This document shows, one piece after another, positions 29,014 to 33,961 of a DNA stretch of 64,000 nucleotides; the first letter of the stretch is position 1; every line of letters starts with the position of its first letter. The stretch is from Bacteriovoracia bacterium (lineage in GTDB: Bacteria > Bdellovibrionota > Bacteriovoracia > Bacteriovoracales > Bacteriovoracaceae), in the NCBI GenBank assembly GCA_046570105.1, contig JBKHVI010000001.1, forward strand, positions 96,001 to 160,000, written 5' to 3'. The position numbers were made by a program, and so were the translations under genes. The notes beneath the pieces are model-generated. The model was not told where the DNA came from and did not search any database. It saw nothing but the letters and a program-made list of their open reading frames with translations.

Positions 29014-29421
29014 ATGAAAGCACTTCTCGCTTCTTTGCTCCTTGTTGCTGTTGCCCTACCGGCCATGGCCCAAGTAGTGATTCGTCGCCCGATTCCAATC
29101 CCACCACACTATCCATACCCAGGTGACCCTTGGCGTGATCCTTGGCGCCAACCTATGCCACCACAAGACTTCTGCTACGGTGATCGTTTTGATCGCGTTT
29201 CCGAACTCACTCGTGAAGCAGCTATCGTTCGTCTAGACCGCTTTGAAGTAGAAAAAGCTGTTGAGTGCTCACTCACTTCTTCTGGCCTTGATACTGCTTC
29301 TGGCAAATGTTACGAAGCTAACGGCGACTTGTTCGCTCGCTTGAACATGTCATTTGTTGTGAACTGCAATACACGCAGTGGTTCTTCAAGACTCCGCAAA
29401 ACAACGATTAAGTACTACTAG
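29014..29421 (+). CDS. Secreted hypothetical protein with Pro-rich N-terminus
   Basis: GGAGG RBS; signal peptide ending AMA; four Cys. Confidence 0.75.
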   Translation: MKALLASLLLVAVALPAMAQVVIRRPIPIPPHYPYPGDPWRDPWRQPMPPQDFCYGDRFDRVSELTREAAIVRLDRFEVEKAVECSLTSSGLDTASGKCYEANGDLFARLNMSFVVNCNTRSGSSRLRKTTIKYY

Positions 29422-29450
29422 TACAAGTCTTAATTGTTGCTCCTTGTTTC

Positions 29451-29479
29451 GGCCAAAAGGTGTCACTCACCTTTTGGCC
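29451..29479. repeat. REP-like perfect palindrome overlapping the RAYT stop codon
   Basis: GGCCAAAAGGTG-TCACT-CACCTTTTGGCC. Confidence 0.75.
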
Positions 29480-30089
29480 TTTTTAATGTCTCGAACAGTT
29501 TAATTTTCTTTTTATTAATATCAAACTGCCAACGTCTCAGCCCCTTGCGAATAATCGCTTCACCTTCATTTTCAATTCTCTCATTCAGCCACAGCAACTC
29601 GGCTGCCTCTCCACCTAACTCCATATTCACTCGACTATGTAATGGAAACGGCACTCGCGAAGTGAGTGTTGAATAAGGATAGAATTCCACTCTTTCAACC
29701 ATCCGCGCACGTAATGGATTTTGGTAAATATAGCGATAGACTTGATAATAATAAGCCTGATTCTCAATCAAGCTCCATTTATAGCGTCCTCCCCACAAAT
29801 GATTTGTTCCATCAGCCTTTCTCATAATTTTCACGGCCGTATTTCGCATCAATAGATGCATCACCTGATCTAGATTACATCGCGGCGTTTGAACCAACAG
29901 ATGGAAGTGATTATCCATCAAGACAAATGCATGAATACAAATCCCAAAGCGCTCTTGAACATTTTTAAGTTCATCGACAAAAATTTTCCAAACCTCGTTC
30001 ATCTCAATCGGATAGAACTGCTTGTCATTCGTTCGAGCTGTTACGTGGTAGGTATGAATATCACTGCGAATCAAAGCATTTCTCGGCAT
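29463..30089 (-). mobile_element. REP-associated tyrosine transposase (RAYT/TnpA-REP, Y1 HUH family)
   Basis: MPR start, YHVTAR, LMDNHFHLL (HUH), YIYQNPLRA (catalytic Tyr), YPYST; AAGGAG RBS. Confidence 0.9.
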
Positions 30090-30142
30090 AATTACTCCTT
30101 GTAACCCGTTACCTCTTGGCGCTTTTTTGCAGCACCAAGCGG

Positions 30143-30960
30143 TGTTAAAATTAAAACGGGAAGGAGTAAGCCTGAGGGATTCCCCCCAGACCTAGGTGCT
30201 TGTGACACCAAGAGGTTCACAGAGAACGTGGAACTGACAAAACATGGAGCGTGAGCATGCCCCTTCCCGCCTCTCTTGTTGCAAAAAGACGGGAAATTTT
30301 CCGAACACTAACTATTGAATTTTCAACAGGAGTCGTCTCACTGCGTGAGAGATTTTTTCCACTCACATGTCCGTTTTTTACCCGCGACTTGTTGGAGATG
30401 GATGAGACTTACTTCGAGTGATAAAATTAAAAAAGGGAAGAGGTAAGCCTTGAGAGATTCCTCTCAAGACCCAGGTGTGAGCACACCAAGAGGTTTAAAA
30501 AGAACATTGAACTGGCAGAGCGGTGAACTTGAGCTACCTCTTCCCGCCTCTCTTGGTGCAAAGAGACGGGAAAATTTCTACGACTCAACTATTCAAAAAA
30601 ATTCATCCATCACTTCACTGCGTGAGAGATTTTTTCCAATCACTTGTCCGATTTTTACCCGCGACTTGTTGGCGATAGATGAGAGTTCAATCAAGTGATA
30701 AAATAAAAAGGGAAGGAGTGGGCCTGAATTATTTAATTCAACCCCAGGGTGCTGTCACACCCAAGGGGTTCACCTGAACTTGGAGCTGGATGAACGTGGA
30801 GCGTGGACCTGCCCCTTCCCGCCTCTCTTGGTGCAAAGAGACGGGAAAATTTCTACGACTCAACTATTCAAAAAAATTCATCCATCACTTCACTGCGTGA
30901 GAGATTTTTTCCACTCACATGTCCGATTTTTACCCGCGACCTGTTGGAGATTGATGAGAG
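30143..30960. repeat. Three-unit tandem array (periods 277 and 275 bp): variable 111-nt structured segments plus conserved ~140-bp linkers
   Basis: Segments 30158-30268, 30435-30545 and 30710-30820 each run GGGAAG...CTTCCC; linkers 30546-30685 and 30821-30960 nearly identical. Confidence 0.9.
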
Positions 30961-31025
30961 CTGGAAGAAAATAATTGGCACTAATTCAATAAAGAACTTT
31001 CTCGTATCTCACACACATAAAAACT

Positions 31026-31062
31026 AAAAAGCCGAACGTAATTGATGTAACTACGTCCGGCT
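31026..31062 (-). terminator. Intrinsic terminator of a putative antisense RNA
   Basis: Minus strand AGCCGGACGTAGTT-acatc-AATTACGTTCGGCT-TTTT: 14 bp including two G-U pairs, then a U-tract. Confidence 0.7.
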
Positions 31063-31107
31063 CTTCTATGACGTCCAATGAAGGACGCCTTTACCAAAAG
31101 GAAATTC

Positions 31108-31182
31108 ATGGAAGAGTTAGCGCGGGTTCTGATCCTCGTTATCTTGACGATACAGCTTGCTGTATTGCTCAAGATAATTTGA
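31108..31182 (+). CDS. 24-aa hydrophobic peptide, type I toxin candidate (MEELARVLILVILTIQLAVLLKII)
   Basis: AAGGA RBS, ATG 31108, TGA 31180-31182; single TM helix; below the ORF-track cutoff. Confidence 0.65.
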   Translation: MEELARVLILVILTIQLAVLLKII

Positions 31183-31280
31183 TCGGATTTAGAGGGAGGG
31201 GAAAGCAGCCTCTCCCTCACCGTTTTAACTTCCAATCCTCAAATTCAGCATAGCTCTATTTGAATAAGCGAATCAAACTT

Positions 31281-31313
31281 AAAAAAAAGGCCCGGGTTAA
31301 ACCCAGGCCTTTT
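31281..31313 (-). terminator. Intrinsic terminator of the OMP gene
   Basis: AAAAAAAAGGCCCGGGTT-AAACCCAGGCCTTTT. Confidence 0.8.
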
Positions 31314-31358
31314 CTACCTAAAAGTGTACCTAAAAGTGCATGACACCTTTTGGAAATT

Positions 31359-32594
31359 TTAGAACTTGTAAGTCATAGCGACGCGAGCGAGTAGACGGTT
31401 TGAATTCAAGATTCCGTTACTTGGTGCTGTGTTATTGGTCGCAGTAGCAGCCGAAGTCATCAGCAATCCGTCGATAGCGAAATCACCAAACTTCAAAGTA
31501 GCACCTGAACGGACAGATGTTGTATTCGCTTTGGTACGCTTCTTGTCTGGGTTCTGAGCGACAACGTTTGTGTTAACCAATGGCAATAGGTCTTCATCGT
31601 AGTCGTTGTCTTGCTCATTGATTATACTCTGAGAGATTGAACCACGAAGAGTCAGCCATGAAGCAGCGTCCACTTCTAAACCAACTACGACTGGAACAGC
31701 GTAATCATCAATCGTTGCTTTGCCGTCATCTTTGGTATCAAGCTCACGCTTGTTCAACACATAAGATACTTTATAGAACAAAGTCGCTTTGTCGTTAAGC
31801 TTAGTCTCGCGACCGTAACCCACGATAAAACGATCAGTTTGCGCATCAGCTTCACCTGTATAAGCAGGAGCTGCAGCTGTCGTTGCAACTTGAGAGACAG
31901 AACTCTCTTGTTCCCAAGCAGCGTGGCGCCAGAAAGCAAATACGCTTGCCTGATTGTCGATACGGTATGTTCCACCTAATTCGTAACCAAGCTTACCCTT
32001 GAATTCTTCTTTATCCCCTGCACCTGCATCAAGATCGCCCTCGAAAGAGTTGATCAATGAAACGTTAGCAAAAGCTTCAAACTTGCCAGCGATAACACCT
32101 AGACGAGCTGATAACGTCTGGCTCTCAAGATCTTCGAATGTGCCATCTGTATCATCTTTGTTTTGTGAATAAGTAAGGTTTGCTCCCCACTTAACTGAAG
32201 ACTCTCCAGCTAAGAAAAGATCAAGCTGGTTATCTTGATGAATCACTCGGCGGTTTGTGACCAAGTAGCCGCGTGCTTCGTTTACAGAAGCAGATTCGCC
32301 ACCGAAGTAAGCACCAGCGACCATGTTGTTCCAGCCGTAAAGAACACCACCCTCAGCCTGTGGATTATTATTGGCGTCAGCTTTAGTTCCCGCGGCGCCA
32401 TCACCACCCAATTCAAAGATCGCAGTATCTTTGTAATTGTTAGCATGAGCTGAGTTGAGGAAAATATTACGATTATCGTTAATGTACTGTGAGCCACCGA
32501 TATCTTCGCCTAAAGCGACGAGACGTGCTTTGGTTGCGAACGCCGGAGTCGCGAGGACTGCCAAGGCTGCTCCAAGAACAAGATGCTTTTTCAT
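31359..32594 (-). CDS. Major outer-membrane beta-barrel protein, paralog 2
   Basis: Signal peptide ...PAFA-TKARLVALG; amphipathic strands; ends MTYKF. Confidence 0.8.
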   Translation of the reverse strand: MKKHLVLGAALAVLATPAFATKARLVALGEDIGGSQYINDNRNIFLNSAHANNYKDTAIFELGGDGAAGTKADANNNPQAEGGVLYGWNNMVAGAYFGGESASVNEARGYLVTNRRVIHQDNQLDLFLAGESSVKWGANLTYSQNKDDTDGTFEDLESQTLSARLGVIAGKFEAFANVSLINSFEGDLDAGAGDKEEFKGKLGYELGGTYRIDNQASVFAFWRHAAWEQESSVSQVATTAAAPAYTGEADAQTDRFIVGYGRETKLNDKATLFYKVSYVLNKRELDTKDDGKATIDDYAVPVVVGLEVDAASWLTLRGSISQSIINEQDNDYDEDLLPLVNTNVVAQNPDKKRTKANTTSVRSGATLKFGDFAIDGLLMTSAATATNNTAPSNGILNSNRLLARVAMTYKF

Positions 32595-32627
32595 GTTTCA
32601 CTCCATTTAAGTGCAGGAAGAGTTTTC

Positions 32628-32661
32628 AAAAAAAAAGGGCCAGCAAGCTGGCCCTTTTTTT
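32628..32661. terminator. Bidirectional intrinsic terminator between the OMP paralogs
   Basis: A9-GGGCCAGC-AA-GCTGGCCC-T7. Confidence 0.85.
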
Positions 32662-32670
32662 AACTTTCGT

Positions 32671-33810
32671 TTAGAAACGGTAAGTCATTGATACGCGAGT
32701 CATCAAGTTAGATGAATCGATTTCACCAGCTGTACCGCTTGCAGTGTTACCGATCATACCGTCGACAGCCATATCGCCGAACTTCAAAGAAGCACCAGCA
32801 GCTACTACAGTTGTGTTAGCTTCTGTGTTCTTGTTTGAGTCAGAGTTAGCAACTGCTGCTTTAGTTTCAACTTCGTTGATCAAGATTTCTTGAGAAACTG
32901 AACCACGAAGAGTCAACCAAGAAGCTGCGTCGAACTCAAGACCGATAGTCGCAGACAAATCGCTTTCGTTATTTTCGCCATCTTCTCCAGCATCCTTAAC
33001 ATCGCTAGTTGTATTTGTGTATGCAACTTTTGTGAAAAGAACTGCTTTGTCATTCAACTTGTCTTGGCGAGCAACACCCAAAGACATTTCGTTTGATTCA
33101 ACGTTATTATCGCCGTCAACTTCAAACTCATTCATTCCGTAATAACCGAAAGCAGTGTAGCCGTTCCAGCTGTAAGAACCACCAATTTCAGTATCACCTT
33201 TGCGCTCTACTTCTACGTCTTGATCTTTATGATCTGTCTTACCTGTGATGCCGTACTTCAAGTAAGCAGCCCATGGGCCCTGGCTAAGACCAACTGCAAG
33301 ATCCATAACATCTGTCTTAGCTTCTGTGTTTGTAGCAAGACCAGCACCGCCGTCACCAGCATTGAAGTCATCATTCTTCTGTGATGAGTAAGTCAACTGA
33401 ACGCCCCACTTGATACCAGCGTCGCCGCCGATGAAAAGATCAAGTGCGTTTGTTGCTTGATAAACGAATAGGTCACCAGCATCAACATCACCATCATCGT
33501 TAGCGTCTGTTGCAAAAGAATCAGTACCTTCGTTGTAAGAAAGATTGCGGCCCATGTGTGCGCCCCAAACCAAGTTACCAGCGTTACGGATGAATCCACC
33601 TTCGCCGTTTCCGCCGTCATTTTCTAATTCGTAAGTAACGAAATCTTTTTGGTTATTAACTTCAGACGCGTTAAGGAAGATGTTACGGTTATCTTGGATG
33701 TAGAATGAACCGTTAGTATCTTCACCCAAAGCTGCCAAACGAGCTTTAGATGCGAATGCAGGAGCAGCTAGTACAGCCAATCCAGCGGCGAGAGCGAGTT
33801 GCTTTTTCAT
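32671..33810 (-). CDS. Major outer-membrane beta-barrel protein, paralog 1
   Basis: AGGAG RBS, MKKQ...PAFA-SKARLAALG; ends MTYRF; shares NRNIFLN and DAASWLTLRGS with paralog 2. Confidence 0.8.
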   Translation of the reverse strand: MKKQLALAAGLAVLAAPAFASKARLAALGEDTNGSFYIQDNRNIFLNASEVNNQKDFVTYELENDGGNGEGGFIRNAGNLVWGAHMGRNLSYNEGTDSFATDANDDGDVDAGDLFVYQATNALDLFIGGDAGIKWGVQLTYSSQKNDDFNAGDGGAGLATNTEAKTDVMDLAVGLSQGPWAAYLKYGITGKTDHKDQDVEVERKGDTEIGGSYSWNGYTAFGYYGMNEFEVDGDNNVESNEMSLGVARQDKLNDKAVLFTKVAYTNTTSDVKDAGEDGENNESDLSATIGLEFDAASWLTLRGSVSQEILINEVETKAAVANSDSNKNTEANTTVVAAGASLKFGDMAVDGMIGNTASGTAGEIDSSNLMTRVSMTYRF

Positions 33811-33961
33811 GAAATCTCCTTGTTTCAAAATGACGTTGGTCATTCCTAAATTAAGCAAACAAATAACTTTATACGTTAAGTGTGTAAGTGTTCTTTCTTT
33901 TTGGCAATACTGTTTTTGTTGGTTGCATTTTGCATAGGGGCAAACTCATTGGTCCTATCAA

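Follow-up and report, generated by a model that had tools for sequence, protein, structure and literature searches.

What are the three structured repeats that stand head to tail beside a gene for a REP-associated tyrosine transposase (RAYT; REP, repetitive extragenic palindrome) in the genome of a Bacteriovoracia bacterium? The locus lies in a stretch of 64,000 nucleotides (nt) of contig JBKHVI010000001.1 (positions 96,001 to 160,000, assembly GCA_046570105.1), the whole of which we call the window. A first reading, made from the letters and without database searches (hereafter the sequence-only reading), had offered two answers: an undescribed family of structured non-coding RNA genes travelling with a RAYT, or an elaborate single-stranded DNA (ssDNA) substrate or cassette array built by the RAYT. 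We now propose, with a probability of roughly two in three, that the repeats are genes for structured small RNAs (sRNAs) with a promoter each, and that these make up a new family restricted to one lineage, amplified in tandem, born in the neighbourhood of one RAYT clade and mostly retained beside it.

Three units fill positions 30103-30960 of the window, with start-to-start spacings of 277 and 275 bp (a unit of ~276 bp). Each holds a core of exactly 111 nt on the plus strand, at 30158-30268, 30435-30545 and 30710-30820, just where the sequence-only reading had placed them; the linker after each core measures ~165 nt instead of the ~140 bp estimated there. The core of unit 1 consists of a closing stem P1 (GGGAAGG/CCTTCCC), a hairpin P2, a bipartite hairpin P3 and, towards the 3' end, a segment that has A(A/G)C motifs, and the P1 of unit 2 counts 11 bp (GGGAAGAGGTA/TACCTCTTCCC). 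The linkers, those of units 2 and 3 especially, had been described as far more alike than the cores, and they are. Units 2 and 3 share 95% identity over a block of 155 nt that is mostly linker, and unit 1 reaches 75% in the same block, whereas the cores are only 62-69% identical to one another and keep the same helices through paired changes. The constancy of core length is confined to this array, as homologous cores elsewhere range from ~104 to 117 nt.

We built two covariance models, R1 from the 4 copies of the own genome and R2 from 19 units. The window cores score 157.8, 162 and 164.3 bits with R1 and 141.7, 145.9 and 140.9 bits with R2 (units 1, 2 and 3, respectively), and the fold of unit 2 has a z-score of -3.86. 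All cores share three helical elements: the long P1, P2 and the two-part P3. When 27 distinct units were aligned to the model, in an alignment fitted to its structure, 81.3% of paired cells were complementary against 68.2% in shuffles. The covariation score reached 0.373, compared with 0.158 +/- 0.010 for shuffled alignments (none of 500 attained it) and at most 0.125 when the partners were slid. All six P2 pairs and all four inner P3 pairs change on both sides, and the double changes in P2 and P3 are visible in the raw sequences too. The covariation supports helices P1, P2 and P3, and the fold of the module is under selection. The compensatory changes first noticed in the closing stem and in hairpins 1 and 2 are thus present both in the window and across the 27 homologues, and the covariation is significant.

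Between P3 and the 3' arm of P1 runs a segment of ~45 nt that is conserved in sequence. It contains five to six A(A/G)C motifs, mostly GAAC or GAGC (GARC), spaced by 7-9-7-6 nt in most units; 141 such motifs were counted where shuffles give 45.1 +/- 5.4, and none of 1000 shuffles attains that number. A third short stem (TTCAC/GTGAG) had been drawn in this half of the core. Its register is lost in other lineages, no consistent P4 could be found across them, and a single-column pair scan for an extra stem in the 3' half was too noisy to use; the region is a conserved periodic sequence motif. Such periodicity suggests a multi-site binding platform. We propose that the RNA would act in trans in this capacity, most likely for an oligomeric protein or for several copies of one, and that the variable hairpins would distinguish the paralogues.

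The architecture upstream of each core points to the plus strand. A TAnnnT hexamer stands 5-10 nt before P1 in 27 of 27 distinct units when read by eye; a script confirms it in 24, with TGn in 16 of those, and in the three that it missed the model had misplaced the start of P1. The most distant homologues (G042, G151 and L150 among our working labels for genomes and loci) have a perfect TGnTATAAT. In the window, the extended -10 box is found at 30143-30151 in unit 1 (TGTTAAAAT, plus strand, 6 nt before P1) and at 30696-30704 in unit 3 (TGATAAAAT, plus strand). Further upstream lies a REP-like motif, about AACCCGnnACCTnTTGGnn; a search with the regular expression CCTnTT(G/C)Gnn, which matched 18 of the 27 units, puts its end 24 nt from the hexamer in 14 units and 25 nt from it in 4. 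That of unit 1 (AACCCGTTACCTCTTGGCGC, 30103-30122, plus strand) ends exactly 24 nt before the -10 box. Unit 2 was missed by the regular expression and read by eye: in its upstream region (30378-30427, plus strand) the motif at 30378-30397 is followed by a 24-nt spacer and again by TGATAAAAT, with the hexamer at 30422-30427. The spacer keeps its length and differs in sequence among lineages, and in every unit the motif is similar to the 3' half of the REP described below.

Taken together, the -10 box and the motif at fixed spacing resemble a promoter and the operator that precedes it. The arrangement follows neither from a DNA-substrate model nor from a minus-strand model and favours a plus-strand RNA; since a conserved plus-strand -10 box precedes every unit, we read each unit as an sRNA gene of its own. 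Each ~276-bp unit would then be a separate plus-strand transcription unit, with transcription starting at or just before GGGAAGG from the extended -10 promoter and the REP-like motif held 24-25 nt upstream of it. We also considered a sigma-54 promoter for the TGGCAC-like motif found upstream and set it aside, as by eye neither the spacing nor the distance to P1 fits. A palindrome-like block is also present in the linkers, in the window at 30336-30362 (GTGAGAGATTTTTTCCACTCAC) and at equivalent places in G002 and L173 (GGAAGAAATTCC in both) and on contig C111 of G007; it lies ~85-105 nt upstream of the next -10 box, is followed by an A/T run, and may be a regulator binding site.

How widespread is the family? 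The model searches covered 101 + 151 + 151 sampled genomes. With R1, 7 of 101 related genomes proved to have units, for the most part in tandem and spaced by 277-293 bp; with R2, 6 of 151 sampled genomes of the family did (the own genome included in both counts). In the phylum-wide sample of 151 genomes, R2 found two with units, both inside the family, and none among the 127 genomes outside it. From metagenomes, 4 of 80 loci pulled in by a degenerate pattern were confirmed as true units. In total there are about 30 homologous units, in 8 related genomes (the own one included) and 4 metagenome contigs, all from one taxonomic family. The own genome has 4 copies; the fourth is located on contig C55, downstream of a ribonucleotide-reductase (RNR) gene and with no RAYT nearby.

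The earlier claim that the family is undescribed stands after a comparison with Rfam 15, which yielded no match at gathering score in the 64-kb window. With E up to 10, only chance-level matches appeared (within the units, mir-4889 at 17.1 bits against a threshold of 90), and none appeared with E up to 0.1 in seven homologous loci. ARAGORN predicted no tRNA or tmRNA gene in 29400-31400. A literature search returned nothing on such an RNA, the word start 'RAYT' mostly matching unrelated text. To our knowledge, almost no sRNAs have been characterised in predatory Bdellovibrio-like bacteria.

Nor do the units appear to code for protein. A frame of ~50 codons is open across all three linkers of the window (LPLPASLGAKRRE...), but it has no Pfam match and is interrupted by stop codons in G007, a close relative whose RAYT is 95% identical to that of the window; we therefore reject it as coding. 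The observation that no open reading frame (ORF) is conserved across units is thereby upheld. What follows the array varies: a convergent PopA-type porin gene in the window, a globin-like gene in G007, other genes in L145 and L150, and a convergent gene at C55. We rejected a type III toxin-antitoxin RNA array, given 276-bp units with their own -10 boxes, a divergent RAYT as the sole adjacent gene and no conserved downstream ORF.

The gene beside the array (29463-30089, minus strand, divergent to the units) encodes a Y1 (HUH) protein of 208 amino acids (aa) with an HFHLLV motif and a YRYIYQNP tyrosine motif. It matches Pfam PF01797 Y1_Tnp (E 1e-9, 39 bits, cut-off 23), falls just below the cut-off of NCBIfam NF047646 REP_Tyr_transpos (E 1.2e-21, 77.2 bits, cut-off 80) and scores 24.6 bits with an IS200 model whose cut-off is 55. 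The protein has the Y1 HUH fold with its HUH motif and a catalytic tyrosine followed by a (Y/H)xNP-type motif, and the gene is flanked by REPs that recur in the genome (29451-29479 and 31328-31355). The Y1_Tnp match and these REPs agree with its earlier naming as a RAYT HUH nuclease, but the REP_Tyr_transpos score stays under the cut-off, hence we call it RAYT-like. Elsewhere in the own genome, at G000:C8:19502-20110, there is a second RAYT-like gene, 42% identical to it.

The REP at 29451-29479 (GGCCAAAAGGTG-TCACT-CACCTTTTGGCC) is a 12-nt inverted repeat of 100% complementarity that overlaps the 3' end of the RAYT gene and doubles as a terminator-like site, on the plus strand, for an upstream 144-aa gene. 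Its 10-mer occurs 34 times genome-wide against 5.4 expected, and nhmmer places it at ~33 loci. A variant REP, likewise an inverted repeat, lies on the far side of the array at 31328-31355 (CCAAAAGGTGTCATGCACTTTTAGG on the minus strand; nhmmer C1:127355-127328, E 1.9e-5), adjoining the terminator of the PopA porin. The REP family reads (G/T)CCAAAAGGTGTCAnnnAC(C/T)TTT(T/A)GG over ~29 nt, with its ~33 loci in the 3.0-Mb draft genome G000; loop and arm vary in three ways (TCACT/CACC, TCATG/CACT and TCAGC/TACT), and contig C54 has a cluster of several copies. In other genomes, related RAYT genes are accompanied by the same kind of REP and by no RNA module. In G002, G010 and L173, a full REP hairpin stands between the RAYT start codon and unit 1.

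A conventional REP family thus flanks the RAYT, and we conclude that the modules are not the REPs of this RAYT. They also differ from REPs and from bacterial interspersed mosaic elements (BIMEs), which are imperfect palindromes of ~20-40 nt present in tens to hundreds of copies, in having 111 nt, three helices and 4 copies. The modules lie within the REP-flanked neighbourhood of the RAYT and seem to have taken up REP-like DNA as an element close to their promoters. A 68-bp gap, shared with the RAYT 5' region, holds a hairpin of which the upstream motif of unit 1 is a part; in this unit, motif and RAYT 5' region are the same DNA. Perhaps the RNA and the RAYT share regulation through this motif.

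Is the RNA then a functional partner of the RAYT? Of 151 family genomes, 86 have RAYT homologues. A maximum-likelihood tree was built for 30 RAYTs, from which short or broken matches (L046, L051, L062, L066 and L067) and the interrupted gene of G045 were left out. All eight RNA-linked RAYTs in it fall into one clade of 11 (support 100/100), and none of the 19 members of the sister clade is RNA-linked. A filters-off scan of 27 other RAYT loci found a module in none of them, the best chance matches having E of at least 0.12. RNA and RAYT are always divergent in the pairs, with ~50-75 bp between the start codon and P1, and the pairing is kept in two genomic contexts: the window type (own genome, G007, G002, G010, G003 and L173) and another shared by L145, L150 and G045.

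These regularities, together with the fixed-spacing motif that unit 1 shares with the RAYT 5' region, are what would be expected if the RNA served the Y1 enzyme or its mRNA as a guide, scaffold, decoy or regulator and were kept adjacent for that reason. We consider such a partnership unlikely. In the DNA available around each locus, RNA is found without RAYT at 5 of 14 loci and in 3 of 5 synteny classes: C55 of the own genome, C111 of G007, L177, G042 (with 611 bp of flank available) and G151 (with 3.7 kb). The genome of G042, rated 100% complete, has the RNA and a sole RAYT that belongs to the other clade. Conversely, clade RAYTs of G113, G146 and G185 have no adjacent RNA, and in G113 there is no RNA match genome-wide at E 0.001. 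Adjacency across a gap of 60 bp persists by default, and as there are only two synteny classes of RNA-RAYT pairs, the association reflects few independent events, at most one or two. Finally, the predicted duplex energies with the RAYT 5' region give a cognate RNA no advantage over a non-cognate one (-45.7 vs -42.8 kcal/mol), duplexfold giving long, meaningless duplexes for both.

A narrower version makes the RNA a dedicated cofactor of this one RAYT clade, in which REPs would control the promoters and the GARC segment would bind the Y1 enzyme, so as to guide, tether or restrain its action on REP DNA. We hold it to be improbable. Were it true, this would be the first RNA partner known for a domesticated transposase of the HUH/Y1 type, and the RAYT-free copies would act in trans or be relics.

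The link between RNA and RAYT is real but not obligatory. The proposal of a structured RNA family travelling with a RAYT is largely supported: the lack of an Rfam match, the covariation, the -10 boxes and the confinement of the linked RAYTs to one clade speak for it, whereas units independent of RAYT genes, named in advance as evidence against it, do occur at the five loci above. Within the sRNA proposal that we prefer, the family would have arisen beside one RAYT clade in a REP-flanked neighbourhood, where it mostly stays while surviving without the RAYT. Since the RNA survives in this way, we read the link as shared locus history and not as an obligatory partnership.

The arrays themselves change in size. 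On contigs from three metagenome runs of one study, position 30427 is joined to 30704, so that exactly 276 bp (unit 2) are skipped; at the RNR-side locus, the own genome has one unit and G007 three. The unit-number polymorphism that the sequence-only reading had proposed to look for thus exists at both places, as two versus three units and as one versus three. In G002, G010 and L173, units at the same position are 81-96% identical, compared with 62-75% within one array, which implies that some paralogues are old. Neighbouring units of G003 and G007 are 86-90% alike, which points to duplication or conversion in the recent past. The contrast between conserved linkers and diverged cores is best accounted for if recombination and conversion act on the former and the latter are kept distinct, and the array would grow and shrink by unequal recombination between these homogenised linkers. 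Decayed units lie between the first and the last unit of the L173 metagenome contig: in one, P1 closes on a 6-nt loop (GGGAAGGGGG-ATTCGG-CCCCCCTTCCC), and another is without the entire 3' motif segment. Arrays therefore carry pseudogene members.

In the window, the last linker copy (30821-30960, plus strand) has the post-P1 hairpin, the conserved block and a copy of the upstream motif, with no RNA core afterwards. On contigs of related strains (runs X2-X5), ~564 other letters replace positions 30932-31061, and the loose ends of this replacement are similar to the beginning of the globin-like gene found after the G007 array. In the window itself, at 31359-33858 on the minus strand, are two tandem PopA-family porin-like genes, the first matching NF053618 (E 9e-104) and the second being its paralogue by tblastn cross-matches. 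Just past the RNR stop codon (L004/L229-L235), a block of ~70 nt (CTGCACCAGGTTTCCC...CGAGnGACATCGAAGAAACCTGACACACAC) and a terminator are conserved in 6 of 6 relatives examined, and beyond them gene content differs in every genome. An empty-site comparison there met a post-terminator region that differs in every relative and could place a single breakpoint, at the left motif.

Several observations weigh against a plus-strand sRNA or leave its strand undecided. The pair counts come from a model-fitted alignment, which inflates pairing somewhat. Folding energies of the cores are equal on both strands (summed, -1096 vs -1103 kcal/mol), and counts of G.U against A.C pairs favour neither strand (P1 20 vs 22, P2 3 vs 9, outer P3 13 vs 8). 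Each core is followed by a hairpin (in unit 1 at 30264-30295, TTCCCGCC...GACGGGAA) whose 5' arm overlaps the 3' arm of P1 and resembles the upstream motif. In 25 of 26 units, this post-P1 hairpin has its greater stability on the minus strand (summed, -262 kcal/mol on the plus and -372 on the minus strand), a preference for which the plus-strand model gives no explanation. A sigma-70 scan requiring both hexamers flagged no promoter in the units, and a -35 box at 17 nt is absent. Directly after P1 there is no canonical intrinsic terminator, that is, no hairpin with a U tract. A possible plus-strand terminator at 30336-30359 (hairpin TCTCAC-TGC-GTGAGA, then a T run), which would give a transcript of ~200 nt, is weak and lies ~70 nt past P1; the block is conserved in the linkers of the window lineage, and the T run is present in that lineage only. 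The one observation that suggests a protein-binding role is the periodicity of the motif. In sum, we infer the strand, the ends and the expression of the RNA from sequence only.

The same strand-neutral energies and wobble counts, and the hairpin that favours one strand, would suit modules that are untranscribed ssDNA structures, an elaborate REP- or BIME-like substrate or a cassette array made and moved by the RAYT. So would the REP-like motifs that flank the units in direct orientation, and the rearrangement breakpoint between the own C55 and C111 of G007, which coincides exactly with the left motif; BIME clusters, too, typically form tandem arrays. This second answer of the sequence-only reading is nonetheless quite unlikely. 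The RAYT already has its conventional ~29-nt REPs at ~33 loci, against only 4 promoter-bearing modules, and the 27 other RAYT loci do without any. It does not predict that every unit should have a -10 box at a set distance, in some of them with the perfect consensus, and a 45-nt unpaired segment with conserved motifs is unlike a REP hairpin.

It is very improbable that the minus strand is the functional one and that the array forms a long mRNA leader for the RAYT, in which P1 and a U-rich attenuator run close every unit. On that strand the units are co-directional with the RAYT, T-rich sequence follows P1 in the window, and both the post-P1 hairpin and the hairpin of the RAYT 5' region have G.U pairs. 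However, G003, G045 and G151 have no U run after the minus-strand P1 and still fit the plus-strand TAnnnT. The RAYT-free loci have no downstream minus-strand gene, the unit of C55 faces the end of the RNR gene, and by eye no conserved minus-strand promoter is seen upstream of the hairpin. Least probable of all are cis-acting, riboswitch-like leaders in which the 3' arm of P1 competes with the next hairpin to control read-through: the two are mutually exclusive (3-5 shared nt) and the core has conserved, aptamer-like junction nucleotides, but the post-P1 hairpin has no U tract, no downstream gene or ORF is conserved, and the next gene is convergent both in the window and at C55.

How does the proposed sRNA family compare with known systems? 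RAYT/REP (REPIN) systems and BIME clusters are known from proteobacteria. The present locus is similar to them in its single Y1 HUH gene of the REP-associated type, flanked by genome-recurrent short palindromic REPs, and in the tandem repetition alongside the gene, with REP-like motifs bounding each repeat here. It differs in that the repeats are 111-nt multi-helix cores with their own -10 boxes, an unpaired motif segment and 4 copies, and in that most RAYT loci of the family are without modules (0 of 27).

The CsrB and RsmX-Z sponges and the Qrr paralogues are regulatory sRNAs whose genes are multi-copy or tandem and in which binding motifs are repeated. Similarly, the units appear as side-by-side, separately promoted paralogous sRNA genes with a motif repeated five to six times and a copy number that varies among relatives. 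In contrast to CsrB and RsmX-Z, where GGA is displayed in hairpin loops, the motif here is A(A/G)C/GARC, placed in an unpaired segment at intervals of 7-9-7-6 nt; neither sequence nor Rfam comparison links the units to these RNAs or to Qrr, and a canonical terminator is absent. A sponge of the CsrB/Rsm type was rejected, as by eye GGA is found in some units only, with UGA or UAA in C55-type and other units. Periodic triplet-repeat RNAs are also bound by the ring proteins TRAP and HutP. Their targets resemble the 3' segment in having conserved motifs of 3-4 nt separated by short variable spacers of near-constant length; they differ in motif and spacing, and the segment here would belong to a trans-encoded structured RNA and not to a leader.

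The transposase of IS200 is controlled by an sRNA, art200. Control by sRNAs, Asr9 and Ssr9, is also reported for the transposase gene of ISPpu9, which inserts in REPs (PMC8450116). Both cases resemble ours in having sRNA genes immediately beside a transposase-type gene in a REP context. Those sRNAs reportedly overlap or pair with the transposase mRNA, whereas the RNA here is divergent, ~60 bp from the start codon, has no cognate-specific pairing and also occurs without the gene.

Altogether, the array is a well-supported candidate for a new structured sRNA family in predatory Bdellovibrio-like bacteria. It combines a conserved putative promoter, covarying helices, a strictly spaced motif and old tandem paralogues with homogenised spacers. 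The strictly spaced, repeated motif predicts a multi-site binding partner, and the close, though non-obligatory, linkage to one RAYT clade offers a testable handle on the unsettled role of RAYT/REP systems. A second question is opened as well: whether REP-like sequences can serve as promoter-proximal control sites.

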